A stretch of DNA of 64,000 nucleotides from a virus. Taxonomy: Duplodnaviria > Heunggongvirae > Uroviricota > Caudoviricetes. Positions 18,384 to 35,139 of the stretch are shown piece after piece; positions within the stretch are counted from its first letter, which is position 1, and each line of letters opens with the position of its first letter. The stretch is from positions 20,407 through 84,406 of the IMG/VR virus record IMGVR_UViG_3300038393_003162, one strand, 5' to 3'. A model generated the notes under the pieces. That model had not been told where the DNA came from. It searched no databases and saw only the letters and a list, made by a program, of their open reading frames with translations. Both the position numbers and the translations under genes were made by a program.

Positions 18384-19796
18384 TTAACCGTTGAACGACT
18401 CTTCCATCAGCATGCCCGAAACACGAAAGCTGAAGTCCTGTAGGTCGCGTGTACAGTCCCCCGACTTCGTGATCGCATGGCTGAACTCTTCCAGCACGAC
18501 CTTGATGAACAGGTAGCCGGTCGACTCCAACGTGTCACGGGACAGCCCCACCGTATCCCGCCGATGATCGTAGTAGCCGCCTACAACCCGTCCAGCGTCC
18601 ATCACATCGGCATAGCCTTCCAAGACAGGCATCGCACGCCCCCGAGTCAAGCCCAGCCGCTCCAGACACTTCCACACCCGCTGGCACTTCTCCAGGTGCT
18701 TGGCGGTCAAGTCCACCTTCACCCGACCCAATGCCTCGAAATGATCCAAGACATCGATCGCCGTCTTCACGCCCATAGACGCCAGAGTCTCGTGAAGCTC
18801 CGAAGAGACGACAACAGCCGTATGCCCCTTCATCTCCACCGCATCCACGAAACGGCTCTCCTCGCAGCACACCGCCTGCTCGCCGAATACCTCCTTCCAT
18901 GCTTGGAGCCACCGCTGCGACACCTCAACCCCATCCGTATCGTATGAGCGAATCTTCATATAATACGAATCAAGTTCCATCTCGTAGGCGTTCAGGTCCC
19001 CTCCCGGTCTCAGGTTCCGGAGATACTCGACCAAAATCGAAACCGGAGCGTTCCGGATCGCACGACCAATCACCTCGCGAGAATCGCTCTCGCTGATGAT
19101 CCGTGCCTCGTTCAGATGGATCTCGTTCAGGTTGTAGTCGAACAGCGACCGACTCCCGAACTCCCCAACCAAAACACCCTTGCGATAGACTCGCGCCGGT
19201 GTCCCGTCGATCCGCTTCGGCATGATCGGCTCGGACGGCTCCCAATCGCGATTGAACATGAGGAAATGCTTGGCGAGCTCGTTGTAGTACGCTTGGACGG
19301 CTGACGTTCCCTCAATGTAGATCCGCGTGACATCCTTCTTCGCCCGAATCTCTTCCTCTTCCACCCACGTAACCTTGGCATTCTTCGTGTCGATCCCCTG
19401 AATCACGCAACCGTCGATCGCGTTCGACACGAACTCGCGAACCGCCATCCCGACATCGGTCCAGTCGATCGCACCGAACCCCATGTCAAAACCCAACGGC
19501 TTCGACTTCCGCCCAGATCCCGAAATCTGCTTCATGACCACTTCGTTGACGGAAACCCGACGCCCCGCCGCATCCTTCGTTGCTCGTGAGTCCGTCTCGA
19601 ACTCGAACCCGTCATTCCCAAGGTAAACCCGGAACTCGACGCCCTTCCTCAAAAGAAGAGCAATCGAGAACTTGAACCCACTCCCGAACTGTCCAATCAG
19701 GCTCTCGTTGCCACGTGCCGCCGACGCTCCAACAATCGTCAACAGTTCCGTGCCAACGACGCCGGGATTCTCGATGAGAAGGTACGTCTTGCTCAT
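18384..19796 (-). CDS. GHKL-type ATPase with permuted motif order and a C-terminal zincin-like EExxH
   Basis: IENPG, IGQFGSGFK, then REFVSNAID; C-terminal VLEEFSHA. Confidence 0.7.
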   Translation of the reverse strand: MSKTYLLIENPGVVGTELLTIVGASAARGNESLIGQFGSGFKFSIALLLRKGVEFRVYLGNDGFEFETDSRATKDAAGRRVSVNEVVMKQISGSGRKSKPLGFDMGFGAIDWTDVGMAVREFVSNAIDGCVIQGIDTKNAKVTWVEEEEIRAKKDVTRIYIEGTSAVQAYYNELAKHFLMFNRDWEPSEPIMPKRIDGTPARVYRKGVLVGEFGSRSLFDYNLNEIHLNEARIISESDSREVIGRAIRNAPVSILVEYLRNLRPGGDLNAYEMELDSYYMKIRSYDTDGVEVSQRWLQAWKEVFGEQAVCCEESRFVDAVEMKGHTAVVVSSELHETLASMGVKTAIDVLDHFEALGRVKVDLTAKHLEKCQRVWKCLERLGLTRGRAMPVLEGYADVMDAGRVVGGYYDHRRDTVGLSRDTLESTGYLFIKVVLEEFSHAITKSGDCTRDLQDFSFRVSGMLMEESFNG

Positions 19797-19859
19797 GGGG
19801 ATCTCGCTTTCCTGGGGTGAGAGAATGTCTATCCGTCGCTACTCAGGGCGAATCCGGTT

Positions 19860-20117
19860 TTAATCACCAAACCACCACATCGCATGATATCGGCAATAAA
19901 CCCGGTTCTGAAGACTATCGATCAATCGGTCGTATCCATGGCGTGTGCCATCCGTCTGCAGTGACATGTCCGTATACAAAATATCTCGACTTAATGGCAT
20001 CTCGCAGAATCGACAACATACTTCCCTCTTTAAGAGGATGTCGTCGATCCTTTGAAGCCCATAGCCGTTGACGATCTCTCGCCACTTGGTCTTGTCTCCT
20101 CCCCTGTTCTTCACCAT
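19860..20117 (-). CDS. Small Cys/His-rich protein
   Basis: CCRFC...YCRYH; GGAGG RBS. Confidence 0.55.
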   Translation of the reverse strand: MVKNRGGDKTKWREIVNGYGLQRIDDILLKREVCCRFCEMPLSRDILYTDMSLQTDGTRHGYDRLIDSLQNRVYCRYHAMWWFGD

Positions 20118-20278
20118 CGCTCATCCGCCCTCCATCTAATGCCTACCTCGCCTCAAAGGGTGAATCCGGTTTTTGCCCGGCATTTTAAAAAATAAAAATG
20201 CGGTTGCGGTCCATTGTGCCACAACGACACACGGACCGCAACCGCATAATAACCGCCTACAGGATTGACAAAATATCT

Positions 20279-20554
20279 TCAGTACGTCCCCATAATCACA
20301 GCAACAGCCGCCTTGTTCTGCCTCGGGTGGTCGTTCGGATCGATGAAGTACATGTCGAGCAGGTAAATCACCCCGTCTGACAAGAGGTTATAACCCCTTT
20401 TCTTGAACGCCAGCCTGGTCTCATAGCACCACGCCCTTATACTGTCCGGCGTCACCTTCCCCGTCAGCTTGACCGGAGGCAGCCCGTCCGGTATCCTAAT
20501 GTCCCTAAGCTTCCTCTCTTGCTGCGGCTCCTTCTGCGACCGTTCCTTTGCCAT
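20279..20554 (-). CDS. Hypothetical protein
   Basis: ORF; start MAKER after AGGAG. Confidence 0.6.
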   Translation of the reverse strand: MAKERSQKEPQQERKLRDIRIPDGLPPVKLTGKVTPDSIRAWCYETRLAFKKRGYNLLSDGVIYLLDMYFIDPNDHPRQNKAAVAVIMGTY

Positions 20555-20761
20555 GGGTCTCGCTCCTGATCGTGGAAAATTTCGACGCATTTCGGCAAAG
20601 GGTACATCCGGTTTTTGCCTGCGTCAAGACCAATCTGAAATAAACGATTGGTCTCATGTTCAACCAACTAACTAATTACACGATCAAATAACCAACTCTT
20701 TATACACATGTCCACACACATACACAAAATATAATGTGATCGCAGGCATACACAAAATAAT

Positions 20762-21589
20762 TCAGATACCAGCGATCTTCCTATACTTCTCCAGGACATC
20801 GCTGCGATCCAGGAACGGTCGCTGGGTGAAGTAGGCGAAATGACTGACGAGGGCATTCCCCGCGATCATCACCGGTCTCTTGGTCTCCGTCGGTCTCGTC
20901 ACCGTCAACCACTCCTCTTCCTCTGCTTCCACCTTCCCATCAAACGCCTGGAAGTCCTCACCCATGAACGCGAAGCAATTGATGCTGAACCTCTGGATCG
21001 GGTCCAGATGCCAATAAGGAAACGAATACTTATAAACTTCCTTCTTCTCATGATAGTCGAAGAATATCTCATGGACCGTCTTCGCGAACTCGCCGCTCGC
21101 CCACCCCAGAGAATCCAGGCAATGATGCGTCACGATCCCCTTCTCCCTCGTGACCACTCCCATCCTCTGATGGATATGCGTACAAATCGCATTGTTGACG
21201 ATATTCGCACAGACCAAAAACGGCTCGCGGTTGCCCAGCCTCGCGTTACAGAGGGCAGGGATCGCCGTGGGATGAACATACACGATATCGTCATCGAACC
21301 TCACATAGACCGTATTCTTCTTTGTACAATTCTTGAAGAACTGGAAGATCGAATACGCCTGGAAGTCCTCGTTCACCGGCTCGGTCGGATATTCGAGCTT
21401 GATGAACTTGGGATGATCCTTGGCTGTCGCTTCCATCCACTTGATATCATCCTGGTCGGTCGTGTTCACCCACAGACGCCACTCGTCTAGAACGCCCTTG
21501 TTGCTGAGCATGTAGGGCAACAGGACTTCAAGGTAGCGTCGGCGTCCTGCCGGTGTCACTGCCACCACCTTGTGATCGCGATATCCCAT
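20762..21589 (-). CDS. Putative glycosyltransferase (GT-A-like)
   Basis: VAVTPAGRRRYL...VYVRFDDDIVYV (DxD motif)...SINCF...SHFAY. Confidence 0.7.
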   Translation of the reverse strand: MGYRDHKVVAVTPAGRRRYLEVLLPYMLSNKGVLDEWRLWVNTTDQDDIKWMEATAKDHPKFIKLEYPTEPVNEDFQAYSIFQFFKNCTKKNTVYVRFDDDIVYVHPTAIPALCNARLGNREPFLVCANIVNNAICTHIHQRMGVVTREKGIVTHHCLDSLGWASGEFAKTVHEIFFDYHEKKEVYKYSFPYWHLDPIQRFSINCFAFMGEDFQAFDGKVEAEEEEWLTVTRPTETKRPVMIAGNALVSHFAYFTQRPFLDRSDVLEKYRKIAGI

Positions 21590-21593
21590 GGTC

Positions 21594-21866
21594 TCAGTCT
21601 CGCTCCCCGATCAGTTCCAAAAGCATCTTGGGATCAACCAACTTCAAGTCGTTGATGAACGTCATCGCCCGGTCATAGCCACCGAGAAGCTCGTAAAGTC
21701 TCTCTGCGACCTCCTTGTACTCACAGTCCAGCCAGCACGGCTCCGGTTCCTGGTCCAATGCCTTGTATTTGAACTCATGAAGATGCTCGGAGATGGTCTC
21801 AATCTCGTTCACTCTCGCCGACAACCCGTTGGGAAATTCCCTGATTTTTTCTTGTTTTTTATCCAT
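21594..21866 (-). CDS. Hypothetical protein
   Basis: 90-aa ORF ending 4 nt before the glycosyltransferase start. Confidence 0.6.
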   Translation of the reverse strand: MDKKQEKIREFPNGLSARVNEIETISEHLHEFKYKALDQEPEPCWLDCEYKEVAERLYELLGGYDRAMTFINDLKLVDPKMLLELIGERD

Positions 21867-21905
21867 AAATTTAAATGAGTAATGTATAGATATTATTGAG
21901 TTGAA

Positions 21906-21941
21906 GTGCTATAAACCTTGAGAATAATCAAGATTCTGCAC
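21906..21941 (-). CRISPR. Solo divergent copy of the array-1 repeat
   Basis: GTGCTATAAACCTTGAGAATAATCAAGATTCTGCAC, 27/36 identical to consensus; changes confined to the stem; 227 nt from the array. Confidence 0.8.
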
Positions 21942-22168
21942 CTGATTTAATCATGTAAACTCTTCACTCGCCTTAGGAAAAGATTACACATGATCATTTT
22001 TGGATATGGTAGTATCTAGACGTGAGGATGTAGTGTATTGCATATACTTGAATACGAGCGAGGCACCCCCACCTACCCTAGAACATCACTTAGACAATCT
22101 TAGCTCGTAGTATGTTGTTGTGTAATCCCCACATACGGTGTACGAAATATTCCTACTTTATGAGCAAT

Positions 22169-22783
22169 GTGCTATGCCTATCGAGAATAATCAATAGGCT
22201 GCACTCTTGAGCAACCGCTTCAAAGGGTTCTTTGGGATGTGCTATGCCTATTGAGAATAATCAGTAGGCTGCACGCAATAACCCTATCAGGATCGTCGCC
22301 AAGAGACTTCGTGCTATGCCTATTGAGAATAATCAATAGGCTGCACCTGTTTCGAAGACGAGTTTGGTGGATGGGTCGCTTGGTGCTATGCCTATTGAGA
22401 ATAATCAGTAGGCTGCACCCCACCAGTAATGTTGGAGGCACCACCATTCAAAGTGTGCTATGCCTATCGAGAATAATCAATAGGCTGCACTAGATCAGGC
22501 GGTTCCATAGATCAGAGTTGATCTCGTGCTATGCCTATCGAGAATAATCAATAGGCTGCACCACCTTGAGGGCTTGGAGATCCTCAAACAGAGCCGTGTG
22601 CTATGCCTATCGAGAATAATCAATAGGCTGCACAGGCGTCCTTTGATCCTAAGTTAGCATGGGAATATGTGCTATGCCTATCGAGAATAATCAATAGGCT
22701 GCACCTGCTGCCGGGCTTATTGTGAGTATGTGAGTAGCGGGCTCCAAGTGCTATGCCTATCGAGAATAATCAATAGGCTGCAC
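22169..22783 (-). CRISPR. CRISPR array 1: 9 x 36-bp repeats, 8 spacers (34-36 nt, one 43 nt)
   Basis: Repeat (minus strand) GTGCAGCCTATTGATTATTCTCGATAGGCATAGCAC at plus starts 22169, 22239, 22311, 22383, 22455, 22526, 22598, 22669, 22748. Confidence 0.98.
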
Positions 22784-22925
22784 TGGGGTTTTCTAACCTA
22801 TTAACCGACAAAGGGTTGCGATTCTACTTTTCAAGCATCTCGTGATGTTGCCTGTTGGGATTTAAAGTATGCCTGTTTACCATGAGATATCATTGCCCTA
22901 AGTCGGTATTGTTTTTGAGTTTAAG
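22784..22925 (-). promoter_or_regulatory. Leader of CRISPR array 1
   Basis: AT-rich segment between the cas12 stop and the first repeat; shares TTTTCAAGCATCT and GCCyTAAGTC..TATT motifs with the array-2 leader. Confidence 0.7.
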
Positions 22926-25695
22926 CCGAATCAAGCATCTCTTGTGGGGTGATATTGCTGGAAGTTGGTGTTTGCCAGAGGGTTAGATGCGATTTATCGT
23001 CATTTGGCTGTTGTTGCTGGGAGGTCCATGATTCCTTAAGTTCCTTTCGCAAGAGTTGATGCTGTTTCCATGGCAACCACTCATCATAGTGTCTATAGAA
23101 CGGGCGTCTATTGGTTCCTTGTGCGTGGCTGGCGTATTCCTTGAGTTTCTTGGCTGTGACTTCCTCTAGTTCTCCTACGAGGTTTTTGCCGAGTTTGAGG
23201 ACGAAGGTGTTGTATCCGAGTCTGGTCATAGCGGCTTTGAATCGTTTGCCCTCTTGATCGGGGACATAGAGGGATCGCGGTTCGATGCCATCCTTGACGA
23301 CGGTTCTCATCCAGATCGAGTTGGCATCCTGATATCTGGTCCAGAATCTTCGTTGAAGGTTCTGTGCGGCATTGAGGTCTGAGTCGACCGTGGTCACATT
23401 GCCTTCCCTCTGGACGTAGAGGATTTCCTTCTCATTCTCGTCCCTGAATCCGTACTCACCGGTCTGGGCATCGATCTGTGAGGAATCCCTCGGGTCGATG
23501 AGTTGGAGAGCGATCCCGTGGGGCGTGAGGAAGTCCACGAGGTAATTCTTGATTTCCCTTGCCGACCAGACTTCGAGCAACTGGTTTTCCTGTTTGGTTC
23601 GTGCGAGCGAGAACTTGAAGTTTTCGAGGTCTTCGATGAGGACGACGTGTGCCTGTTGATAGAGTGCGTAGTGTGCGATAGCGGCGGCGATCTTCTTGAT
23701 TTGGTCCTTCTTGATGTTCCTGAGGGTTCTGAGATGTCTGGAGAAGTGCCTTGGGTCTCTCCGTAGTCCCGGCTGGAGTGGTTCTTGGTCTTTGTATCTC
23801 CATGACTTCATGAGGGAGATGTATTTTTTGTAGACCATGATATACTTGATTGAGTCGGCTGAGACGCCTGTATGCCTGTGGGTATAAGTTCTCAGGTTCC
23901 TGAAATGTCTGGCGATATTGCCGATTGTGCTGTTGAGTTCGTTGAGGAGGTCATAGGGTTGGCTCGTGGGATTGATTCCGGCGAGCTTGAATGCCTTGTC
24001 GTAAGGTTTGAGGTCTTCGTCTTGGTTTTTCTGTAGGTCTTTATAGAGGTAGATGAGTTTCTTAGCGGCGTAGATCTTGTCGTCGAGGTTCTTGATTTGG
24101 TCTACGAATTCTTGGGAGTGGATGGTCCCGATCTTGATTTCCTCGATCTTGGTGGCTTGCCCGAGGTTGGGTACTTGGTAATCGTCTTTTGTGGCTGTGT
24201 GATTGTCTTTGAGTTGATAGGTTGTGAGGGCGAGTGTCGGATTGATGTTGAGGTCGACGGAGATTGCCTTGAGACCTACCTTGATGTCTGGGAGATATTG
24301 GTCAGCTTTCTTGTCATTTGCGGCGGTGTTGAAGTAGGTGATGGTATTCTTAAGAGGCTTGAAGTCGAGGGCTTGGTTGCCTTTCTTGTCGGTCTTGTAG
24401 TTCTCATAGAGTGGGTCATTGAATTTGGTCTGGACATTGAGTGGGAGCGAGAGGTAGACTTGCCCGAGGTATCCGTTGGCGAAGTTGGTTGGATCGATGG
24501 TCCTGAGCAGTTGGTTATTGAATCTGAGATAGGGTTCTTTAAGGATGGCGGTCGTGGGAGTTTGCCTGAGGTTTCCGGTTTTGTATTGGAACTGGAAGTT
24601 CTTAGTTCCCTTGATCGGTTGGATTTCGAGGTCGATGAAGTATCTTGATGGCAGGAGTTCGAGGGTATGGGACTTGAGTTGGGTGATATTCCTATGGTCT
24701 AGAAGTTCGAGGGTTGCGTAGAGTTTGCTATTGGTTTGCTTGATGGAGAATCCGAGGTAATTTTCCCCGAAGTGAGCGTCTTGGGGGAGATTGTGCGTGT
24801 GGGGGGTTGGGACGCTGGCGTTTTGCTTTGCGTCTTCGTTGAGATATCTGACGGCTTCATCTCTTTCAGTGAAGAGGGCGATGAAGTCGATTTCCTGGAG
24901 GTTGAGCCAGAGGTCTTGATATTGGTCTTGAAGTAGGTTGTAGGGTGTTTGGTTGGGGGCTTGCCCTTTGATGAGTTTCTGCCTGGTTTTTTGCCATCGT
25001 GCGAGGAATTTGGCATTTGCCTTGAACTTGGGGTCTTGTTCGGCTTGCTGCTTCCATTCCTGGTAGAGATTCTCTTGGGTGGGGAATTGATTGGCGTGGT
25101 CGACGATCTTCTGTGTGTCTTCTTTTAGGGCTTGATACTCTTTCTGGGTATTTTCATCGTTGGCTCGCCAGTTGCGGAAGAGTGCGATTGCGGCGCAATA
25201 TGCGGACTTGTGTAACTTGAAGGGGAGTTGCTTGGTGTTATTGGTGTTAGTCAGTGGGAAGATATTTTCATCCCAGAGTTTTCTCAATGCCTTGAGTGGG
25301 GGCGAGGCGTTTTCTTTGCCGCCCGATTCGATGAGGCTGCCGTTTTCCTTGAATCTCCTTGCGAGCATTGCCTGGTAATAGAATGGATTTGGGTCTTTTT
25401 GGATACCATCGATGAGTTGGTCGAAGAGTGGGAATGCCTGGTCGGGGTCCATGTGCTTGGCGTAGTTGGTTCTCTTCTGGTCGAGTAGTTCTTGGGAGAC
25501 TTGCTCGCCTTTGGTGGTGGTATAAGGCTGGTTGTTAAGGGTCATGAAGAGGTCAAAGAGTTGTGCAACCAGATCATTGTGGCAGATGTGTGTCGCGGCG
25601 ATATCCTTCCGGACCTCGTCGGGGATGAATCGGAACCTGAGGTTGGTACTCTTGAGGCACGCGGGCTTGAGGCTGTTGTCTTTATCGTTTGCCAT
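22921..25695 (-). CDS. cas12: Type V CRISPR effector, compact Cas12b-clade (V-B/V-H-like), 924 aa
   Basis: RuvC-I GLKAISVDLN, RuvC-II VVLIEDL, RuvC-III DSDLNAAQNLQRRFW; also ENQLLEVWSAREI and SSQIDAQTG resembling Cas12b; adjacent to array 1. Confidence 0.92.
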   Translation of the reverse strand: MANDKDNSLKPACLKSTNLRFRFIPDEVRKDIAATHICHNDLVAQLFDLFMTLNNQPYTTTKGEQVSQELLDQKRTNYAKHMDPDQAFPLFDQLIDGIQKDPNPFYYQAMLARRFKENGSLIESGGKENASPPLKALRKLWDENIFPLTNTNNTKQLPFKLHKSAYCAAIALFRNWRANDENTQKEYQALKEDTQKIVDHANQFPTQENLYQEWKQQAEQDPKFKANAKFLARWQKTRQKLIKGQAPNQTPYNLLQDQYQDLWLNLQEIDFIALFTERDEAVRYLNEDAKQNASVPTPHTHNLPQDAHFGENYLGFSIKQTNSKLYATLELLDHRNITQLKSHTLELLPSRYFIDLEIQPIKGTKNFQFQYKTGNLRQTPTTAILKEPYLRFNNQLLRTIDPTNFANGYLGQVYLSLPLNVQTKFNDPLYENYKTDKKGNQALDFKPLKNTITYFNTAANDKKADQYLPDIKVGLKAISVDLNINPTLALTTYQLKDNHTATKDDYQVPNLGQATKIEEIKIGTIHSQEFVDQIKNLDDKIYAAKKLIYLYKDLQKNQDEDLKPYDKAFKLAGINPTSQPYDLLNELNSTIGNIARHFRNLRTYTHRHTGVSADSIKYIMVYKKYISLMKSWRYKDQEPLQPGLRRDPRHFSRHLRTLRNIKKDQIKKIAAAIAHYALYQQAHVVLIEDLENFKFSLARTKQENQLLEVWSAREIKNYLVDFLTPHGIALQLIDPRDSSQIDAQTGEYGFRDENEKEILYVQREGNVTTVDSDLNAAQNLQRRFWTRYQDANSIWMRTVVKDGIEPRSLYVPDQEGKRFKAAMTRLGYNTFVLKLGKNLVGELEEVTAKKLKEYASHAQGTNRRPFYRHYDEWLPWKQHQLLRKELKESWTSQQQQPNDDKSHLTLWQTPTSSNITPQEMLDSA

Positions 25696-25787
25696 GGTTG
25701 GTTGATTTCTGTTATGTGGTTAGTTTTGTGCGACTGATTATACGTTGTGTGCTGTAGACCTCAGGTATAATTGAGTCTTGCATGATT

Positions 25788-25829
25788 CATGACTTGGGGA
25801 GACATTTATTTCAGCCTCCCCAAGTCATG
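25788..25829. terminator. 14-bp perfect inverted repeat upstream of cas12 (terminator or operator)
   Basis: CATGACTTGGGGAG / CTCCCCAAGTCATG. Confidence 0.5.
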
Positions 25830-25950
25830 GTTTAATTCTAGCATAAGTCTTATTTGGTGTCTAGGTCAATTGTTGTTGTTTTAGGGTCTAAAACTCGATC
25901 AGAGTCTCTTGTCGGCGATCTCGATAGTGTTCGCCGACGAGATTGCGGCT

Positions 25951-26157
25951 TTAGTTGTACAGGATGTATAGGTCTTCGAGCGTCTGCACTCCCACCTGGT
26001 AGAGCATCTTATAGATTGAGTATTCGAGGAGTTCGTATCCTTCGCTAGGGAGATAGTCCTTGGTGCTATGGAGTATGCCTTGGTATTGGTCGACGATTGC
26101 CTTGAATGCTGGGATGTTCTTGAGTTGTTCTAATTCATGTTCTTGTGCTTCTGTCAC
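25951..26157 (-). CDS. Small hypothetical protein
   Basis: 68-aa ORF with AAGGA RBS. Confidence 0.55.
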   Translation of the reverse strand: MTEAQEHELEQLKNIPAFKAIVDQYQGILHSTKDYLPSEGYELLEYSIYKMLYQVGVQTLEDLYILYN

Positions 26158-26402
26158 AGGACATATCCTTCCGTAAGTGACTTATTGATTTTTCTTTGGA
26201 TTTCCTGACAGTCGTCCTTCACCTGTTTGGTCATGTGGCTGACGACGGCTTGTTCGTAGGCGTTGAACGCGGCATCGATTAGGGCTTCATCGTCTTTCCT
26301 CCATAAACGCCCTCTACGAGACTTCTATCATGGGTACGGGGGATTCGTCGTTTTACCTGTCCGGATCGCGTCACGGGGCTTCTGGGAGCCTTCCTGGGCA
26401 TC

Positions 26403-26954
26403 CTAGCCTGGGGCATTGGGTTCGGAGATCATTTCGTTTTTCCTTCTGAAGTTTTGGATATAGGATTTGAGGTTTTGGAGTTGGGTTTGTTGTTGTTCAT
26501 TTTGTTGTTTATTTGGGATGAGTAAGTCGTATGAATCCTGTGCGAGTTTTATCATTATTTTCATGTTTGTTGTGTCATTGGCTGTGAATTGTAATTGGTG
26601 CAGTTGGACTTTGGTTCTATAGTGGATTTGGTTGTCGTTCTTGGTTTCCCAGATATAGAGTCTAGGTTTTAGGGTTGAGGAGGTGGTAATGACGAAGTGG
26701 AGAGAGTGGTCTGTGTGATTTGGATGTTTGGTCTGATAGTGTTTCGCGGGTTCCCAAGAGGTCTTGATATTTTCGTTGATTTTTTTGAGGGAGTCATTGA
26801 TGTGTTCTTTTCTGTCGATTTCCACGAGGTGTTTATTTTTCATGGTATAGACGGCGTCGATTGTGGAGATATAGGTTGTATTTTCTTGTTGATTCTGCTT
26901 GATGAAGGCGAGGTCCCAGCGGGCGAGATTCTTGGGGATAGTGGTATACATCAA
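26403..26954 (-). CDS. C-terminal-motif family protein 1 (close paralog of 26951-27493)
   Basis: HYQTKHPNHTDHSLHF; ends QTQLQNLKSYIQNFRRK. Confidence 0.75.
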   Translation of the reverse strand: MMYTTIPKNLARWDLAFIKQNQQENTTYISTIDAVYTMKNKHLVEIDRKEHINDSLKKINENIKTSWEPAKHYQTKHPNHTDHSLHFVITTSSTLKPRLYIWETKNDNQIHYRTKVQLHQLQFTANDTTNMKIMIKLAQDSYDLLIPNKQQNEQQQTQLQNLKSYIQNFRRKNEMISEPNAPG

Positions 26955-27493
26955 TATTTCCTTCTGAAGTCATGGACCTGGGATTTGAGGTTTTGGAGTT
27001 GGGTTTGTTGTTTGAGGTCTTGTGGATTCTGGGTGATTTCGGTCTGTTGTGTTTCTTTGGTCTTGCAGGATTGTGCGGTTCTTCTTTGGACATCTTTGAG
27101 TGCGGCTGGGACATTATCGGAGTAGGTATAGGTTCTGAATGGGCGTTTGAGGTCTTTGTAGGTGAAGTGTTGCGCGTGGTTGTATTGGAACGGGACATCG
27201 AGTACGTAGAGTTTGAGTGTATGGCTGTGTGGTGTGGCGAAGAAGTGGAGTGAGTGGTCTGGGTGATTTGGGTTTGTGGTCTGATAGTGCCTGATAGTTT
27301 CCCAGAGGAGTGTGCTTTCTATTTTTTTGTGGTCGATTTGGTCGAAGAGGGTGCAGGCGTAGCTGCCCTTGTCGGCTTTTTCGAGGTGATGGTGTTGGAG
27401 TGTGAAGATGATGGAGTCGTAGGTGATGTAGGTAATTTCTTCGATTTGGATTTTGTAGGCATAATCCCAATTTTGGATTTCGGGTACATTCAT
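26951..27493 (-). CDS. C-terminal-motif family protein 2
   Basis: HYQTTNPNHPDHSLHF; ends QTQLQNLKSQVHDFRRKY. Confidence 0.75.
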   Translation of the reverse strand: MNVPEIQNWDYAYKIQIEEITYITYDSIIFTLQHHHLEKADKGSYACTLFDQIDHKKIESTLLWETIRHYQTTNPNHPDHSLHFFATPHSHTLKLYVLDVPFQYNHAQHFTYKDLKRPFRTYTYSDNVPAALKDVQRRTAQSCKTKETQQTEITQNPQDLKQQTQLQNLKSQVHDFRRKY

Positions 27494-27538
27494 TCGATTA
27501 TTTTCTCCGGTAGCGTGTATCATGTATTTTGTTCCGAC

Positions 27539-28063
27539 TCATTCGATTTGCATCGAGTTGCTTTGCCTGAAGGTTTGGATTGCCTTGAGGGTTTCTTGTT
27601 TGTATTGGTCTTGATTGTGCTTATGTTTATGCTTGGTTGGTTCGAGGGAATCGAAGGCTTGCTTGAATGCGTAGTAGGCGTTGGGGATCGAGAATCTTTC
27701 GTAGGTTCCGATGACCTGGGTGGCGGCGAGGTTGTTTGGGTCGAATCGTCTTGAGATGAGTGTGGGGTTATCCCGCTGGGGCTTGTAGAGGAGATAGGCG
27801 AGGATTTGCCCGTTCTCGATGGTGGGGTGCGGGAGTTCGATTGCCTGGATACTGTCGATGTTATTGGGCGACGGCTTGTAATAGTTGACGAGGTCGTTAT
27901 AGGCTTGGTGCCTGTCGTAACTGGCGTGGAGGGTTTTGATTTGGTCGATATTGTTCATAAAGGGATTGACGGTGTAGAGGTATTTGTCGGTGATGATGAA
28001 GGTGCTGCCGGGGGTGACGATGAAATAGGCTTGGGTCCAGTTGTAGAGTGGTGGGACGGGCAT
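27539..28063 (-). CDS. C-terminal-motif family protein 3
   Basis: Start MPVPPLYNW; ends YKQETLKAIQTFRQ. Confidence 0.75.
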   Translation of the reverse strand: MPVPPLYNWTQAYFIVTPGSTFIITDKYLYTVNPFMNNIDQIKTLHASYDRHQAYNDLVNYYKPSPNNIDSIQAIELPHPTIENGQILAYLLYKPQRDNPTLISRRFDPNNLAATQVIGTYERFSIPNAYYAFKQAFDSLEPTKHKHKHNQDQYKQETLKAIQTFRQSNSMQIE

Positions 28064-28073
28064 TGTGTTGGTC

Positions 28074-28568
28074 CTAGTAATTGGTTCGGAAGTGGTTGAT
28101 TGCTTTCTTGAGGTCTTGTTTGCGTTGGATCTGGGTGTTTGTGGTGTCATCTTGCGGCGGCTTACCTATGAGGCTGTCGTATATCTTCTGGGCGGTGGCG
28201 ACGACTTGGTCCTTTTGGAGTTTGATCTGGATATGGGCTTGTTGTTGGTCGGTCTCGTAGGGTGAGAAGTGATAGAGTGCGAAGTAGCTGGAGATATTGA
28301 TGTCGGGGATGGCGACGAAGAGTCTCGGCTTCGAGGCGAATAGCCTGTGATATTTTGCCGGTTTCCAGTCGAGCTTACCTTCTTTCAGGTCGATTTCCTG
28401 CTTGATTCGAAGGTACGAGAAGTTATAGACTGTGTTTTGGGTGATGGCACCCGAGAACCGGTCGATGCAGAATACTCTGGTGGTGGTGACGATGTATCGT
28501 TTATCGGGGGTGTAAGCGGTCTGGGCATCGATCCATTGGTCTAGCTCAGGAAAATTTTTGCGTGGCAT
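28074..28568 (-). CDS. C-terminal-motif family protein 4
   Basis: Ends RKQDLKKAINHFRTNY. Confidence 0.75.
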   Translation of the reverse strand: MPRKNFPELDQWIDAQTAYTPDKRYIVTTTRVFCIDRFSGAITQNTVYNFSYLRIKQEIDLKEGKLDWKPAKYHRLFASKPRLFVAIPDINISSYFALYHFSPYETDQQQAHIQIKLQKDQVVATAQKIYDSLIGKPPQDDTTNTQIQRKQDLKKAINHFRTNY

Positions 28569-28620
28569 TTTCGTCGATCCTGTTAGTTGACGAGTCCGCG
28601 TGGGTTTAGTTTATTTGGTC

Positions 28621-29130
28621 TCAGGGGTTTAGGGTCCGGAAATTGTCGATAATATTCCTGAGGGATTTCCTGTTGGTTTCCTTGAATTGGGCGACTTCCT
28701 CTGGCTCTTGGGCTGGGGGATAGAATTGGTCGAAGAATTCCTGGAGGAGTCTATGGTCGCGAGAGAGTGATCCAGCGGCGAATTCGAACCGGTTGGTTGG
28801 TCCTAGGTGGTTGGGTTTACTCCTCGTGAAGACGCGGACGACGTTCGTGTAGGTTTGCTCATTGTAAGTGAGGAGGAGTTGGAGGTAGTTCTCCGGTTCG
28901 TCGGGGTGAGGGAACCCCAAGTGGCGGAAGTAGAATGTCTTGGTGTTCACGGTTGCGTCCCTGATCGCCTGGAACTTCTGGGTCCTGGATTTGTGGGGGA
29001 CTGCCGTGAACACCTGGTCTTTGTTATTAGTGAGTATATATGCATATTCTTCGGTGACGAAATAGGTGTAAAGATCGGTTTGGATGGCTTTGGCGATGAG
29101 CCACTGGCTGAAGGGCGGTATGACGGGCAT
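28621..29130 (-). CDS. C-terminal-motif family protein 5
   Basis: Ends NRKSLRNIIDNFRTLNP. Confidence 0.75.
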   Translation of the reverse strand: MPVIPPFSQWLIAKAIQTDLYTYFVTEEYAYILTNNKDQVFTAVPHKSRTQKFQAIRDATVNTKTFYFRHLGFPHPDEPENYLQLLLTYNEQTYTNVVRVFTRSKPNHLGPTNRFEFAAGSLSRDHRLLQEFFDQFYPPAQEPEEVAQFKETNRKSLRNIIDNFRTLNP

Positions 29131-29139
29131 TTTTAGTCC

Positions 29140-29625
29140 TTAAAAATTGGCTTCCCGGAAGTGTTTTGCTGCGCGGATGACATCCTGCCGGAACTGTCGT
29201 TGTTGGTCGGTGTTCATTTTAACATTTATGGGTTTTTTGTCAAGGAATCTCCGGAGGATCTCGTTAGCTTTGGGGATGATTTCGGGTCCTTTGAGGCTGG
29301 CGACGATTTTGGCATAAACATCAGGCTTATTCGGGTCGAAGTGGTAGAGGAAGGTTCCCAGGAACGTGGTGGTTGGAATGAGTATGAAATGGAGTTGGTC
29401 GTTTTGGTCATTGATGTAGGCTTCGGTCCAGAGGAGGTTTTGGTGGACGGAGGTCTCGATGGCTTGGATCGTATTCAGCACGTGGTAGATGGGCTGGTCG
29501 TAGATGATCCGATTGGTATTGCGGTTGGTCTGGATGAGTCGATTGTCGGTGACGACGTACCTTGTGTCGATGGTATGAGCGGTTTTGGCTTTGGTCCATT
29601 GGTCGAGTCCGGAAATCTCTGGCAT
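29140..29625 (-). CDS. C-terminal-motif family protein 6
   Basis: Ends FRQDVIRAAKHFREANF. Confidence 0.75.
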   Translation of the reverse strand: MPEISGLDQWTKAKTAHTIDTRYVVTDNRLIQTNRNTNRIIYDQPIYHVLNTIQAIETSVHQNLLWTEAYINDQNDQLHFILIPTTTFLGTFLYHFDPNKPDVYAKIVASLKGPEIIPKANEILRRFLDKKPINVKMNTDQQRQFRQDVIRAAKHFREANF

Positions 29626-29636
29626 CTTTTGGTCCT

Positions 29637-30164
29637 TTAGAAATTGGCTCTTCGGAAGTCGGCGATTGCCTGCTGGATGGTTTTGCGATAGACCAGCAAG
29701 GATTCCTGGTTCTGGATTTCCTTGAGTGATTGCTTGTGTTTGTATATTTCATTGGCTTTGATGGCGGCGACGGTGAGGGTCGCGTGGTTTTCGATCTGGA
29801 CTTGCTTGGTGACGGGATCGATGAGGATGAGTTGCACTTGGTCGGTCGTCACGACGACATATTCCGGGAACTCTGCGTCTTTCTCTGACGGTTTTGCGGA
29901 GCTACCGCAGTCGGCGTAGGCGACGTTGAGGTCGACCGGCAGAGTTTCGTAGGCTTTGATGATCTCCTCGTGGTGGGAGAATCTGCGGGGTTCCTCGGAA
30001 GCGGTCATGCTGTTCGGGTCGATCTTGAGTATCTTCCAAGGGTTCATGGGGTGGTCATTGCTGAAGTAGGTGATGAGGTAGGGGGTACCGGGTGTCGCAT
30101 GTTTCACCGGGACGAACACCTTAATCATGGTCCAGCCGATATCATAGATCGATCGTTTGGGCAT
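29637..30164 (-). CDS. C-terminal-motif family protein 7
   Basis: Start MPKRSIYDIGW; ends YRKTIQQAIADFRRANF. Confidence 0.75.
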   Translation of the reverse strand: MPKRSIYDIGWTMIKVFVPVKHATPGTPYLITYFSNDHPMNPWKILKIDPNSMTASEEPRRFSHHEEIIKAYETLPVDLNVAYADCGSSAKPSEKDAEFPEYVVVTTDQVQLILIDPVTKQVQIENHATLTVAAIKANEIYKHKQSLKEIQNQESLLVYRKTIQQAIADFRRANF

Positions 30165-30174
30165 TGTATGGGTC

Positions 30175-30681
30175 CTAATAATTAATTCTGAAGTTATGAA
30201 TAGCTTGTTGGACGGTATGCTTGTTCTGGAGGAGTCGTCGTTGATTGGTCTCTTGGGGTTTGTCCGATAGTCCGGATACCAGCCGTTCGGCTGTGACGAA
30301 TTGGAGTGCGTTCCGGTTGAGGCTGGAATAGTACAGGATGTTCGTTTCGTTCTTGCGATGACGGACATAGGTCATGTGGTATTTGAGCCAAGGGTTTGTC
30401 TGGGTTCGCTCATGGATGAAGAAATAGTGTTGCTCCAGGGTATGCCAGTCGATGTGGCATGAGACCAGGGCATCTTTCTTCCACGAGAGGTTCTCTGCGG
30501 GTTCTCCGAGTATAGTCGTGACCCAAGAAACCGCTTGATCGCGGGTGGCATTCGATCGCGAACGGAATAAATTACACTGCTGGTTGATGACATAGGAAAT
30601 GGGCATATTTCCTTGCAGCAGGAAGGCGAATAGACCTCTAGGGTCATCGAGGACTTCGGCATTCATCCATTGGAGGGGCAT
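30175..30681 (-). CDS. C-terminal-motif family protein 8
   Basis: Start MPLQW; ends NKHTVQQAIHNFRINY. Confidence 0.75.
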   Translation of the reverse strand: MPLQWMNAEVLDDPRGLFAFLLQGNMPISYVINQQCNLFRSRSNATRDQAVSWVTTILGEPAENLSWKKDALVSCHIDWHTLEQHYFFIHERTQTNPWLKYHMTYVRHRKNETNILYYSSLNRNALQFVTAERLVSGLSDKPQETNQRRLLQNKHTVQQAIHNFRINY

Positions 30682-30692
30682 TGTTTGGTCCT

Positions 30693-31268
30693 TTAGAAAC
30701 TGGTCCTGAAATTCTCGATGGCATTCTTGAGGTCTTGTTTGTTCTGGATGAGTTTTTCGGGGTCCGGGTCTGGTTGTTTCGGGACTGATTTCGGGCGCGG
30801 CTTGGGCATGTAGCTTTTCTCCTGTGCCGTGAAGGTGAGTTCCTCGGCGAGTGTGTGAGCGGCGGTCATACTTGGCAGGTACCATTTGTGGATCTGCCTT
30901 GAGTTCTTGCTGCTGGTGTAGACATAGAGCAAGCAATACGGGTTGGCTTCAAACCGTGCTTTCGAAATCTCGCTGGGGAAGGTGTCGGGCGGTGTCCGGC
31001 GAAAGGCATAGAACTGGACATTTTCGAGCGTATTCTCGGTCATGTCGATGGCATGGTTGGCATCATCGGACCACTTGAGTTCGGCGGCAGTGGTCTCGAA
31101 TTTCTCGGACACGTAGCTTTCGAGTTGATTCGGCGTCGCGTGGACCTTGGCATCCACGTCGGTCGTGATCGTGTTGATGGTATAAGTATGCGAAGAGTGT
31201 TGGAAGCAAAGGACGTTTTGCTTCGACGGTTTTTCAAACACTCTTATCGGGGACCATTTTAATGGCAT
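30693..31268 (-). CDS. C-terminal-motif family protein 9
   Basis: Start MPLKW; ends NKQDLKNAIENFRTSF. Confidence 0.75.
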   Translation of the reverse strand: MPLKWSPIRVFEKPSKQNVLCFQHSSHTYTINTITTDVDAKVHATPNQLESYVSEKFETTAAELKWSDDANHAIDMTENTLENVQFYAFRRTPPDTFPSEISKARFEANPYCLLYVYTSSKNSRQIHKWYLPSMTAAHTLAEELTFTAQEKSYMPKPRPKSVPKQPDPDPEKLIQNKQDLKNAIENFRTSF

Positions 31269-31289
31269 CTTGTGTTCCTTTGATTTGAT

Positions 31290-32411
31290 TCACTTGATAA
31301 GGTCGCGGAAATTCTGGATCGCCTTGAGGGTGGTTTCCTTGTTCTGGACGAGTTGCTGTTGGTCCGGTTCCCGAGGCTCGTCATCCAGTCGCTTCTTTCG
31401 CCTATACGAATACGAAAAATTCTCAATATACGAGGAATATTTCCTGGTCGAAAACTTCCCGAAAGTGGAAAGGTGGTTGAAGTTGAAAGTATAACTTTGG
31501 TTTTGGTTGAATGTGTCGGCGTCGTGCTTGTCGGCAGCGGTCTTGGCATCCATCAGGAGATTGAATACTTGCGTGGTATTATGGGTTGCCTGGGTGTCTT
31601 CATGTCCGAGCGTGTAGAGGGTGTAAAGATTTTTCTTGTCAGCCGAGCAAACTTCGATGAAATAAAAGATATTCTTCGACAAGTCTGTGTTTCTGGTACA
31701 CACGACCGAGTGTTTCGTGTATCCGCCTGGGAGCTTTGCCTTGGCATGAGCCTCGATAGCGGCGATGTAATTAAAGTCAAGACACTCGACCTTGACAGTG
31801 CAGTCGTTGGGGGTAAAGAAGAAAGCCTTGAGGATCGGGTCATCACCCGACTTCGAAGTCGCGATGAAGCAATGCGGTTCGTCGGGGTTATTGGGCTTAA
31901 GGAGGAATCCCGATCGCCAGACGAGGAGATTCTCGGGATTCTTCTTGGTCGGGGCTTGGTCTTGGATGACTTCCGTGATTTCGGTTTGGTCTGGCATCGT
32001 TTCTTGCCCTTCGTTGGTCGATGCGTTGTTAAGGATGTTGTTGGCTGTTTTGATGACATCATCCTTGGAGTCGCAAATCACTTGGGTCGGAATGTTCTTG
32101 GAGTTAGCATCAAAATGGACGAGAAGGAATTCCTCCGTGGGAGTTCGTTTGTAGAAGAAAATATGCCCCTTACTTTCGGAGAATGCGACTGCATACTTCC
32201 ACTGGAGAGTGCGACCGGCTCTCGCCTCGGCGTCGTCGGTCGCGGTGGAAATGAGCATGAACGTCTGGCTATAATGATGGTGTTCCTGTTTGCTGAGGAT
32301 ATGGAGGCGAGGGGTCCAAGTCGAGGTGTTGATGAAATAATAATGGGAATCGGTCTCTGCGACCTTACAGTAGTCCCACGCGAGAACTTGTCCTTGGTCT
32401 GGCATAGTCAT
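31290..32411 (-). CDS. C-terminal-motif family protein 10 (double length)
   Basis: 373 aa; ends NKETTLKAIQNFRDLIK. Confidence 0.75.
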   Translation of the reverse strand: MTMPDQGQVLAWDYCKVAETDSHYYFINTSTWTPRLHILSKQEHHHYSQTFMLISTATDDAEARAGRTLQWKYAVAFSESKGHIFFYKRTPTEEFLLVHFDANSKNIPTQVICDSKDDVIKTANNILNNASTNEGQETMPDQTEITEVIQDQAPTKKNPENLLVWRSGFLLKPNNPDEPHCFIATSKSGDDPILKAFFFTPNDCTVKVECLDFNYIAAIEAHAKAKLPGGYTKHSVVCTRNTDLSKNIFYFIEVCSADKKNLYTLYTLGHEDTQATHNTTQVFNLLMDAKTAADKHDADTFNQNQSYTFNFNHLSTFGKFSTRKYSSYIENFSYSYRRKKRLDDEPREPDQQQLVQNKETTLKAIQNFRDLIK

Positions 32412-32426
32412 GTCCTTATGGTTTGG

Positions 32427-33146
32427 TCAGAATTCATTTTCGTTTTGGAAGTCCCACGGATCGATTTCCCAATCATCGTCTTCGACCACATCGACATTTA
32501 CAGGGGTCGGGGCAGGCGGGGGTGCAGGCTCAGAGTCATCATCCTCATCATCATCACCCATCTGGAAAAGTTTATCCAAGAATGTGTGGTTGACGATGCT
32601 GGGATCGTCGATTGGGATGGCGGCAGTTTCCTCGTCGATGATCCCGCCGAGCTTTTCGACGAGGTTGCAGAGCTTGACGGCAACGCACTCGATCGTGTCG
32701 AAGGTCCCGAAGGTAGTGAAGTTCTTCGCCTTCCGGAGTTGCCCGAGGAATTCGCTGGTGTCCTGGGGGGTGCTGCACCGATGCTCCAATTCTTTTCGCA
32801 TCATCTCCAGCGTCTCGACCAGTTTCTCGACATCGATTTGCTTCGTCTCGGTCACTGCTTCACCCTGCTGGGGGATGTAGCCTTCTTCGTAGGTGGCTCC
32901 GAGGGACATGCCTGGTTCGACCAGATGGTTATGGACCAATTGGGCGACTTCTTTGGCGTCCTCTGGAGACTTGAATGGTCCCCGAGTCCCGTCACCCTTG
33001 CCGTTATCCAGGACGACGGAGAAGTTCCAGCCCCCGCTCGGATTTTTCTCGACCCTGTACCGGGCATTGGGGTTATCCTGTGCGTGCGCGGTAAAAACTT
33101 TCCCGTATCCCAGCTTGTTCCATTTGAGTTTCTGCGGCTCTGGCAT
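32427..33146 (-). CDS. Hypothetical protein, EE(C/G)YI subfamily, acidic tail
   Basis: MPEPQKLKW...YEEGYI followed by a coiled coil. Confidence 0.7.
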   Translation of the reverse strand: MPEPQKLKWNKLGYGKVFTAHAQDNPNARYRVEKNPSGGWNFSVVLDNGKGDGTRGPFKSPEDAKEVAQLVHNHLVEPGMSLGATYEEGYIPQQGEAVTETKQIDVEKLVETLEMMRKELEHRCSTPQDTSEFLGQLRKAKNFTTFGTFDTIECVAVKLCNLVEKLGGIIDEETAAIPIDDPSIVNHTFLDKLFQMGDDDEDDDSEPAPPPAPTPVNVDVVEDDDWEIDPWDFQNENEF

Positions 33147-33242
33147 CTCGATCTCCTTCTTGGTCAGCCTCTTGACAGGTCTTCAATATACGATTTCGCT
33201 TAGTGTGGTCCGATGTTGACTTCGTTTCATCCCATTTGTTGG

Positions 33243-34004
33243 TCACATGTAGCCTTGGATTACCGAAAGATAATTGCTGAGTTCGTAAAATTCGGTCATG
33301 AGGTTCGGCTCGATCTCCTTAAGATCGAGTGCCACTTGTTCGTAACTATCGCGATCGGCTCTGAGCGACTTGATTTGCTCGATGAGGTCTCGCTGGCATC
33401 GGATGAATCGTTCGAGCGGGGATTCGTCTCCCTTGGCGACTTCAGTTCCAGCTTCTTCTTCGTAGTTGGCGATGTAGCATTCCCCGTATTCCTTGGTTTC
33501 CTTGGTCTTCTTAGGTTTGGGTTTGGTGAGAATCTGATAGTTGCACTTATCAGCCATGATCTTGACATCCGCCATGGAATCATAAGTCAACGGCAATTTC
33601 CAATATCCCCCTTCCGGCTTATAAATTACGAGCGTTGCCTTATTGTCTGTTACATAAGTATGGACTATGAAGAAATATCCTGCCTGGTTCTGGGCTTCCG
33701 ACCGAAGGTTTGTAATCGCGTTCCATTCTAGTTTGCCCACCGACTTGATGTGTTCTTGGTCTATTTTCTCAGCTAAAAGGCGTGCTTCTTTTGGGTTTTC
33801 GCAAAGACGGACCCGCCCTACCCCGTCGTCTCCGGTGTATACAAGTCGGGTGATCAGATTGTTAGGACCGGAACTGACCTCGACAGTGTATTCCTTCTCG
33901 GTGACCGTGCTGGTGCCGTAATGCGTGGTATATTTCCCGCCTTGAGAAACCTTCCATTCGAATGCGACTAAAAACATGAGGTCATCCTTTCGTTTTGGTT
34001 TCAA
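33243..34004 (-). CDS. Hypothetical protein, EE(C/G)YI subfamily
   Basis: YGECYI...ESPL followed by a coiled coil; start uncertain. Confidence 0.65.
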   Translation of the reverse strand: MKPKRKDDLMFLVAFEWKVSQGGKYTTHYGTSTVTEKEYTVEVSSGPNNLITRLVYTGDDGVGRVRLCENPKEARLLAEKIDQEHIKSVGKLEWNAITNLRSEAQNQAGYFFIVHTYVTDNKATLVIYKPEGGYWKLPLTYDSMADVKIMADKCNYQILTKPKPKKTKETKEYGECYIANYEEEAGTEVAKGDESPLERFIRCQRDLIEQIKSLRADRDSYEQVALDLKEIEPNLMTEFYELSNYLSVIQGYM

Positions 34005-34107
34005 AACATCATATCAAAAAACACGCTCCAGGTCAAGCCAGGAGCGTCTCTTGGGTCGGGATGGTGGAACAGGACGTTTTCTTCGGGTCGCTGGTTCTGG
34101 GGGCATT

Positions 34108-35067
34108 CTAGAAGGATTCCCGGAAGGCAGCGATGGCTTTGAGGGTCGATTGTTTGTTTCGATTGAGTAATTCCTGGGAGACCGGCTCTGGGCGTCGTTC
34201 CTCGGTCGGGAGATGCTTTAGATTTTCTTTGGCTTGGGCGTCTTCCTTGGCTTCGTGGACCGACTTAAAATGACTGACGACCGGCTTCGCGCTGTCGTTG
34301 GCGAACATCGTTTGCCGGTATTTGTCCAGGAAAGGATAGATGAGCCAGAAATGGGTCTTCATCGGAGTGACAGAGATTGCGTTGATCATCATGTGAAGTG
34401 GTCGCCAGGACAAATAATCATGACCAACGAACTTCTCGAATGCTTTCTTGGCACCTTCTTCCGTGACATAGGGCGTGACACTGACCTTGGACTTTCCATC
34501 GCGGAAAATGTAGAGAAGACTGATGTTGTTGCTGGGGATGAGGGCGGCATAAGCGAGTTGGTTTTCGTTATGGACGTATGACGATGTGTAGATGCCTTCG
34601 AACCACTTGGGTGAAGTGGTCGTTTTCGATTTGGGGAGAGGCTTGAGGGATTTGAAGTTGTTGGCTGCGGTCCTTGCTTTGGGCAGACTAGTGTATTCTC
34701 CTCGGTCTCGGGGCGAATCGTAATTGGCGTTGAGGTGGACGAGCTTCCACAGGTGGTCGTTGGCTGTGATCACGAAACAATCGAACGCTTCTTTGTCGTC
34801 GGCGTCTTCCTTGACCGTTTTGGCATATGATCCCGATACCCAATTGAGAGAGATGACTTTGGCGGTCGAGAGGGCGTGGATGGTCGCTCCAAGTTGATTC
34901 TGATGAATGGTGACGACCGGCTTCGAGTATGCCTTGGGGATGACCGCGAGAATCCGGTAATTATGGGTGGTTTCTTCGCCATCCGCGACCGCCTTGACAT
35001 AATAGTTGGTCGCATCCTGGGCGATGCGTGCTGGCTTCCAGTCGAGGGCTGTATCTGCGTCTGGCAT
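34108..35067 (-). CDS. C-terminal-motif family protein 11 (double length)
   Basis: Start MPDADTALDW; ends NKQSTLKAIAAFRESF. Confidence 0.75.
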   Translation of the reverse strand: MPDADTALDWKPARIAQDATNYYVKAVADGEETTHNYRILAVIPKAYSKPVVTIHQNQLGATIHALSTAKVISLNWVSGSYAKTVKEDADDKEAFDCFVITANDHLWKLVHLNANYDSPRDRGEYTSLPKARTAANNFKSLKPLPKSKTTTSPKWFEGIYTSSYVHNENQLAYAALIPSNNISLLYIFRDGKSKVSVTPYVTEEGAKKAFEKFVGHDYLSWRPLHMMINAISVTPMKTHFWLIYPFLDKYRQTMFANDSAKPVVSHFKSVHEAKEDAQAKENLKHLPTEERRPEPVSQELLNRNKQSTLKAIAAFRESF

Positions 35068-35139
35068 GGTTCGCATCCTTTGGGGCATTAATAACGCAAA
35101 ACTTCATGTTATTAATGCGGATTAGGGTGTCGGTCGGCG

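Follow-up and report, generated by a model that had tools for sequence, protein, structure and literature searches.

The question raised by positions 21,906 to 25,695 of the DNA analyzed here is what kind of CRISPR-Cas locus is formed by a gene for a 924-amino acid (aa) Cas12 protein and the repeat-spacer array next to it, and what this locus would do. The window is the whole 64,000-nucleotide (nt) stretch that was analyzed, positions 20,407 to 84,406 of IMGVR_UViG_3300038393_003162, a single IMG/VR virus record of 253,022 bases, of the class 'provirus' and with an estimated completeness of ~43%. The answer that we favor, and regard as probable, is a type V CRISPR-Cas locus with an intact Cas12 effector and array on a likely huge phage, encoding a CRISPR RNA (crRNA)-guided cutter or nicker of double-stranded DNA that probably needs no trans-activating crRNA (tracrRNA) and is directed against likely competing mobile elements. 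Its core consists of the following features.

22921..25695, minus strand: cas12 effector gene (924 aa; RuvC residues D481, E688 and D773; PF22126 match above cut-off)
22784..22920, minus strand: likely leader, the 137-nt stretch from the cas12 stop codon to the first repeat
22169..22783, minus strand (probable strand): CRISPR array of nine 36-nt hairpin repeats and eight spacers, from repeat/spacer analysis and folding

An earlier sequence-only reading of this DNA had described a 924-aa open reading frame (ORF) with intact RuvC acidic residues, and all three were located in the motifs concerned: D481 (SVDLN), E688 (IEDL) and D773 (DSDLNAAQNLQRRFW), with D481 and E688 at least 90% conserved among 58 sequences. 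The Pfam family PF22126 (Cas12b RuvC domain) matched at 56 bits relative to a cut-off of 27. Structure prediction, which had been proposed as a check, gave a confident AlphaFold2 model (mean predicted local distance difference test score 89.9, predicted template modeling score 0.88) with a low-confidence tail at residues 901-921. The protein has no zinc finger, and its only three cysteines are all within the first 167 residues. As in type V systems, a single RuvC D-E-D effector adjoins a repeat-spacer array. The amino acid sequence is already present in public protein sets; a word search for close homologues returned only a 788-aa form of the same protein, and the ESM Atlas returned Cas12b/TnpB-like clusters only.

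The nine-repeat array was found 137 nt from the gene, as the sequence-only reading had it. Six of the repeats are identical, one has a single change and two have two changes, and the eight spacers are all unique and 34-43 nt long; the spacer nearest the leader (22705-22747) is the one of 43 nt, the other seven being 34-36 nt. No sigma-70-like promoter was found on the minus strand of the likely leader. The self-folding of the minus-strand repeat, with one G-U pair and a terminal stem, was borne out by a fold consisting of a 4-bp terminal stem, a 1/3-nt internal loop and a 9-bp stem, with a folding energy of -16.6 kcal/mol (z -6.2) that was reached by none of 200 shuffled sequences. The best duplex with the repeat outside of the repeats themselves (3750 windows in 18900-29000) was -30.6 kcal/mol, the minimum of the genome background being -29.7, and no anti-repeat above background was found in 18900-29000 besides a solitary tenth repeat copy that is described below. 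A search of Rfam gave no match in the window, and none at an expect value (E) of 1 or less in 21700-26000. These results agree with the earlier statement that no tracrRNA is evident. Because the whole repeat folds on itself like that of crRNA-guided relatives, the best duplex is no better than background and the Rfam search was negative, action with a crRNA alone is likely. Cas1, Cas2 and Cas4, reported missing from the window, were not found across the whole 253-kb record (~43% complete) either, in searches with positive controls in 9, 6 and 8 of 14 genomes, respectively.

The crRNA of Cas12h1 is a 36-nt stem-loop with the same layout as this repeat (PMC11830025), and the repeats of Cas-delta-1 and -2 have the arrangement GTGC-1 nt-stem-3 nt-GCAC, which is similar to this repeat when compared by eye (PMC12721324). 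For Cas-delta-1, the crRNA alone is reported to suffice, and the Cas-delta family is described as lacking Cas1, Cas2 and Cas4 (PMC12721324). By analogy with Cas12h1, Cas-delta and Cas12o1, the array would be transcribed from the minus strand, and Cas12 would bind a crRNA composed of the full 36-nt repeat hairpin and a spacer, probably in the absence of a tracrRNA. A short, purine-containing protospacer-adjacent motif (PAM) would lie 5′ of the target, and the single RuvC domain would cut or nick matching double-stranded DNA. From other huge-phage systems, we would expect new spacers to be supplied by host Cas1-Cas2 and the targets to be rival phages or plasmids.

Several observations weigh against this reading. 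No foreign target was found for the spacers, all eight of which were compared with GenBank phages and two of the eight with IMG/VR, so that the competition between phages suggested earlier has no direct support, and competition between mobile elements is instead proposed from other huge-phage systems and the intact triad. The array repeats at 22239 and 22383 have one broken pair on the minus strand and full pairing on the plus strand. One Cas12h was active only from its native operon and not with a separately expressed crRNA (preprint, bioRxiv 10.64898/2026.03.27.714800). No capsid or terminase gene scored above the cut-off in the ~43% complete record (there was a weak Gp23 match below it, and no terminase), and the 'provirus' class and the estimated completeness count in the same direction. 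Lastly, no locus of a relative was confirmed in IMG/VR, metagenomes or GTDB.

The placement of the effector among Cas12 families was evaluated by similarity searches, profiles and trees. It was found that 242 relatives matched at E of 0.001 or less and 21, including the protein itself, at 1e-30; most of the 150 listed were 750-1000 aa long. Across almost their full length, the nearest share 25-28% identity with the protein, and the ten whose labels were checked are unnamed or called 'transposase'. Among solved structures, phmmer matched Cas12X2 (E 4e-44), Cas12j19/Cas12X (5e-27), Cas12b (3e-17) and Cas12h1 (0.002). The PADLOC scores were 117 bits for Cas12b and 74.5 bits for Cas12h, whereas four true Cas12b1 proteins scored 611-1117 and six true Cas12h proteins 290-748 bits among the 51 scanned of the 150 listed homologues. 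Cas12b1 is the best family in both PADLOC and NCBIfam, although the NCBIfam Cas12b model NF033949 matched at 86.2 bits, below its cut-off of 150, and in a profile comparison Cas12b1 aligned over 809 columns (E 1e-34) and Cas12h over 535. The earlier description of a compact, Cas12b-related effector is consistent with these results and with the Pfam match.

Trees were built from 128 rows (every match of at least 700 aa minus the shorter form of the protein) and from 46 selected rows. Cas12h, Cas12b1, Cas12o1-like and Cas12X2-like proteins formed separate, well-supported clades, and the 924-aa protein lay outside all four, in a loose group with ten uncharacterized proteins and the Cas12X2 clade (SH-aLRT, Shimodaira-Hasegawa-like approximate likelihood ratio test, 89). 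Approximately unbiased (AU) tests were run on two groupings and rejected neither, the p value being 0.22 when the protein was joined to Cas12h and 0.33 when it was joined to Cas12b1; its exclusion from the Cas12o1 clade comes from the tree and sequence identity. Judged by these comparisons, the protein appears to form a deep branch of its own within the Cas12b/h/o superclade, with neither AU grouping rejected. Nesting at high identity in a described subtype, which would have spoken against the divergence claimed earlier, was not seen (best full-length identity 28%). A tblastn search of GenBank phages and plasmids gave no match, and no compact relative was found in 802 cellular genomes (2 x 401 around one Planctomycetota and one Acidobacteriota genome), just two of which matched at all, both with large frames (1594 and 1130 aa).

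The sequence-only reading had overlooked solved relatives (Cas12X2 and Cas12j19/Cas12o1) and that the same design was already characterized. Cas12o1 (Cas12j19/CasJ19/Cas12-2; PDB 8XCA, 8XCC and 8WRU) is alike in having ~900 aa and a 36-nt-repeat crRNA (PMC13717751), and the phmmer match to it covers residues 469-887; it differs in that the protein studied here is 23% identical to P0024, a close homologue of Cas12o1, and lies outside the Cas12o1 clade (100% support). Cas12j19 and the published Cas12o1 are very likely one protein, because both have 908 aa and Asp 534 (the chain counted by eye; D534 in PMC13717751), and Cas12X (PDB 8ZQB) seems to be identical to it. Cas12X2 (PDB 8ZQC and 9IX6) matched in three stretches, which begin in the helical region at the N terminus and reach the C terminus, whereas the identity to P0014, which carries a Cas12X2 motif, is 24%, and Cas12X2 has a 100% clade of its own; no paper was found under the name Cas12X2 or its PDB codes.

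Cas12h1 (type V-H) and Cas-delta, which are described as tracrRNA-free, have 867-936 aa, no adaptation genes and a 36-nt repeat that forms the whole crRNA hairpin, and the locus studied here shares the size, a 36-nt repeat that folds from end to end and the lack of a detected adaptation module. The protein differs from Cas12h in its far lower PADLOC score, an identity of 22-24% and a position outside the Cas12h clade (100%), and was ruled out as Cas-delta-1, -2 or -3 by its length and N terminus. As an aside, a motif of the three Cas-delta sequences was also present in P0125 and P0134, which both belong to the Cas12h clade, and in two other matches, a hint that Cas-delta and Cas12h are two names for one family. 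Cas12b1 (V-B1, C2c1) is alike in a profile similarity that starts at the N terminus, but it is ~200 aa longer, its proteins score far higher with the profiles, the protein studied here is outside its 100% clade, and its locus contains a cas1-cas4 fusion and cas2, which were not found here; nor is a tracrRNA evident here. Type V systems of huge phages (CasPhi/Cas12j, phage Cas12i and Cas-lambda) likewise combine an effector and array without Cas1, Cas2 or Cas4 in genomes of >200 kb (PMC7162821), but belong to another Cas12 lineage, and no Cas12j or Cas12i profile was among the PADLOC matches.

Cas12h1, Cas-delta and Cas12o1 have already been published with this design (~900 aa, a 36-nt repeat, guidance by crRNA and no adaptation genes), and the locus does not represent a new kind of system. 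Inside the Cas12b tree, PMC10691335 describes a shortened, Cas12h-like subclade that lacks adaptation genes, and PMC11576732 refers to viral candidates for Cas12 that are close to Cas12h; the searchable text of the 2025 classification (PMC12669027), with its figures outside this scope, does not mention Cas12h or Cas12o. No publication on a member of this branch encoded by a phage was found in a search that had the original Cas12o1 paper, a 2022 survey of virus-encoded CRISPR systems, bioRxiv supplements and patents outside its scope. With this locus, a compact effector of the Cas12b/h/o type is placed in what is likely the genome of a huge phage, whereas the origin of Cas12h1 was called unknown and phages only suggested (PMC11830025). 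With its triad intact, its repeat defined and at most 24% identity to the database stand-ins for characterized enzymes, the protein is also a candidate genome editor. What is new here is the stem covariation of a solo repeat and a match of spacer 7 to the element's own upstream DNA.

The solo repeat lies past the far end of the array; the interval of the sequence-only reading began with it, at 21906, and left it uninterpreted.

21906..21941, minus strand: solo variant repeat (tenth copy), 9/36 positions differing and 13/13 pairs kept
21942..22168, no strand assigned: 227-nt gap that separates the array from the solo repeat; a long, imperfect hairpin adjoins the latter; no Rfam match

All of the changes in the solo repeat are in the 9-bp inner stem (three double and three single-sided), and the terminal stem, loop and internal loop are unchanged. 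The 13 pairs are all kept on the minus strand, and 11 of them on the plus strand. When nine random changes were introduced, all 13 pairs were kept in 1871 of 2,000,000 trials, in 2 of which the changes were also confined to the stems. Because the stem changes keep every pair, we conclude that the solo repeat is not decayed and is selected for its hairpin, and use of the minus strand is supported. Most likely, it is a still-selected Cas12-binding variant that would be a guide, a decoy or the recent relic of a sister array. It amounts to a natural covariation experiment, in which the terminal stem, loop and internal loop appear fixed and the inner stem need only pair. No other copy of the repeat pattern was found in IMG/VR or metagenomes, collections from which near-identical records may be absent.

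V-A loci often contain standalone repeats, some of which bring about autorepression of cas genes (bioRxiv 10.1101/2023.03.03.530964 and 10.1101/2023.03.10.532045). Like CreR, mini-array and standalone-repeat regulators (types I and V-A), the locus has a repeat-like, hairpin-keeping unit outside the array and a partial match near the cas12 promoter. For the sequence after the solo repeat, neither the cas12 promoter nor the rest of the record contained a target that exceeded chance (best score elsewhere 13), and thus the solo repeat lacks the target of a CreR-type element; a 12/14 match to the cas12 5′ region was rejected as such a target because its score of 10 was reached by 71 of 838 tiles, which is chance level. 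The locus further differs from CreR in that the promoter-proximal match is that of an ordinary array spacer, the solo repeat is past the far end of the array, and spacer positions 1-2 are unmatched.

22275..22310, minus strand: spacer 7, with a partial match to the record's own DNA upstream of cas12
25903..25931, plus strand: site matching spacer 7 at 24/29 positions (spacer positions 3-31), 5′ flank TCGATC
25835..25863, minus strand: predicted sigma-70-type cas12 promoter, 10/12 consensus matches, extended -10
25788..25829, minus strand: hairpin of 16 bp with which the predicted cas12 5′ untranslated region begins, from folding

Ten guide-position sequences were compared with the record and with 250 shuffles. 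Spacer 7 scored 19, compared to a maximum of 17 among the shuffles, and the other nine sequences scored 12-15, within the shuffled range; its gapped score was 18, compared to a maximum of 14 among 838 other genome tiles. The site is 40-68 nt upstream of the predicted cas12 -35 box, in a promoter predicted by consensus match only (2 sites found in the region, 1.0 expected). The match was spotted before it was tested, so these odds are post hoc; the strength and position of the match together make chance an unlikely explanation. The match hints at self-regulation of cas12 and offers a handle on it, but positions 1-2 of the spacer are mismatched at the site, and its flank, ATC, agrees with no PAM of the relatives (ATG, RYR and DHR). 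Spacer 7 may instead have been aimed at a related phage in which the matching region has since diverged; a pattern spanning both forms of the match retrieved nothing from IMG/VR. Homology of a coding stretch was rejected as an origin of the match, the mismatches having no synonymous pattern (by eye) and the site no second copy in the record. The hairpin at 25788-25829 comes directly after the predicted transcription start and could be an attenuator, a stabilizer or the terminator of an upstream gene.

A bolder reading, which we think unlikely but worth stating, is that the protein represents an unnamed huge-phage Cas12 subtype between Cas12b and Cas12h/o that regulates itself, with spacer 7 parking the nuclease just upstream of the cas12 promoter without cleavage and the solo repeat giving rise to a second guide or decoy RNA. 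If true, this would extend RNA-guided cas autoregulation to phage-borne type V systems, by way of a canonical array spacer.

It is improbable that the effector is mainly a nickase, or a DNA-binding repressor of host genes or of its own promoter, rather than a double-strand cutter of rivals. Although Cas12h1 mostly nicks (PMC11830025), Cas-delta-1 produces double-strand breaks (PMC12721324), and the catalytic triad is complete here. Some spacers of huge phages are aimed at host genes (PMC7162821), and the sole spacer match found is that of spacer 7 to the cas12 upstream region, but its mismatched first positions and its flank argue against repression there too.

Also improbable is a requirement for a second RNA, in which the plus-strand solo repeat would be the anti-repeat of a tracr-like RNA, as for Cas12b, or the 227-nt gap would give rise to a scout-like RNA. 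The duplex between the repeat and the plus-strand solo copy, at -35.6 kcal/mol, is more stable than that of every other local window, but all nine changes of the solo copy keep the minus-strand hairpin while weakening that pairing, an outcome as rare among random changes as given above. The better alignment of the protein to Cas12b1 than to Cas12h and the native operon required by one Cas12h favor a second RNA, whereas the compact relatives are described as crRNA-guided and Rfam gave no match.

To characterize the carrier, 107 ORFs of the first half of the record were scanned with PHROGs, and 30 of them again with Pfam, and 123 ORFs of at least 110 aa in the second half were scanned with Pfam, nine ORFs across the locus borders being left out. 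PHROGs matched 21 of the 107 first-half ORFs, and ribosomal-protein or RNA-polymerase families matched none of the 123 second-half ORFs. The record encodes isoleucyl-tRNA synthetase (IleRS), GluRS, IF3, Thg1, PTH2, two RNA ligases, PhoH, a DNA ligase, a helicase and methylases, with many glycosyltransferases and a weak sigma-factor match, and ARAGORN called 34 dispersed tRNAs, two of them without an amino acid assignment. Such a repertoire is described for huge phages (PMC7162821), and the combination of >200 kb with tRNAs and translation genes that is expected of them is present here. Among the cellular loci listed for IleRS, 80 in number, identities were 34-41% and pointed to no host phylum, and no related virus was found via a neighbor gene. 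We consider it very probable that the record is a phage, and likely a huge one. The earlier description as phage-borne is probably right: the virus record, tRNAs and huge-phage genes are in support, and the lack of a capsid or terminase match above the cut-off counts against it. It is highly improbable that the contig represents an island in a cellular genome or a large plasmid-like element rather than a phage. In favor of this are the lack of a capsid or terminase match above the cut-off, the provirus class and the many glycosyltransferase and metabolic genes; against it are the few PHROGs matches, the lack of ribosomal-protein and RNA-polymerase families among the 123 second-half ORFs, the dispersed tRNAs with a divergent IleRS, and the failure to find a compact relative in the 802 cellular genomes.

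Directly upstream of cas12 and on the same strand, 26403-35088 (minus) contains ~11 small paralogues (160-370 aa) with common N-terminal P..W and C-terminal L..AI..FR motifs (nine aligned, two by eye); no convincing Pfam or PHROG family was found for those scanned, and the Atlas leads were weak. The cas12 gene and the upstream paralogue run (22921-31268) have a common A/C-rich coding strand, unlike the gene across the array, and the GC skew of cas12 (-0.28) is the second most extreme of 145 ORFs. The gene and the run may have been acquired, or have evolved, as a unit.

Elsewhere in the record, the IleRS gene has as a neighbor a tRNA of the amber suppressor type, its anticodon being CTA (tRNA at G000:C1:118149-118222, minus strand, L003). 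An alternative genetic code was rejected: TAG is the stop codon of 21 of 192 long ORFs, and therefore this lone tRNA call is no proof of recoding. An RNA/tRNA repair set (G000:C1:185976-187598, L007, and vicinity) is distributed around the large tRNA cluster and consists of a Ro60-like protein, Thg1, PTH2, the two RNA ligases and a nucleotidyltransferase of the RlaP type. A dense cluster of glycosyltransferase, methyltransferase, sulfotransferase and sugar epimerase genes at G000:C1:134000-173000 (L004-L006) suggests heavy DNA or virion modification. In the window, 38915-40744 (minus strand) encodes a protein of 609 aa that contains numerous short repeats of the LHREDGPA type in tandem and matches DUF6745 weakly.

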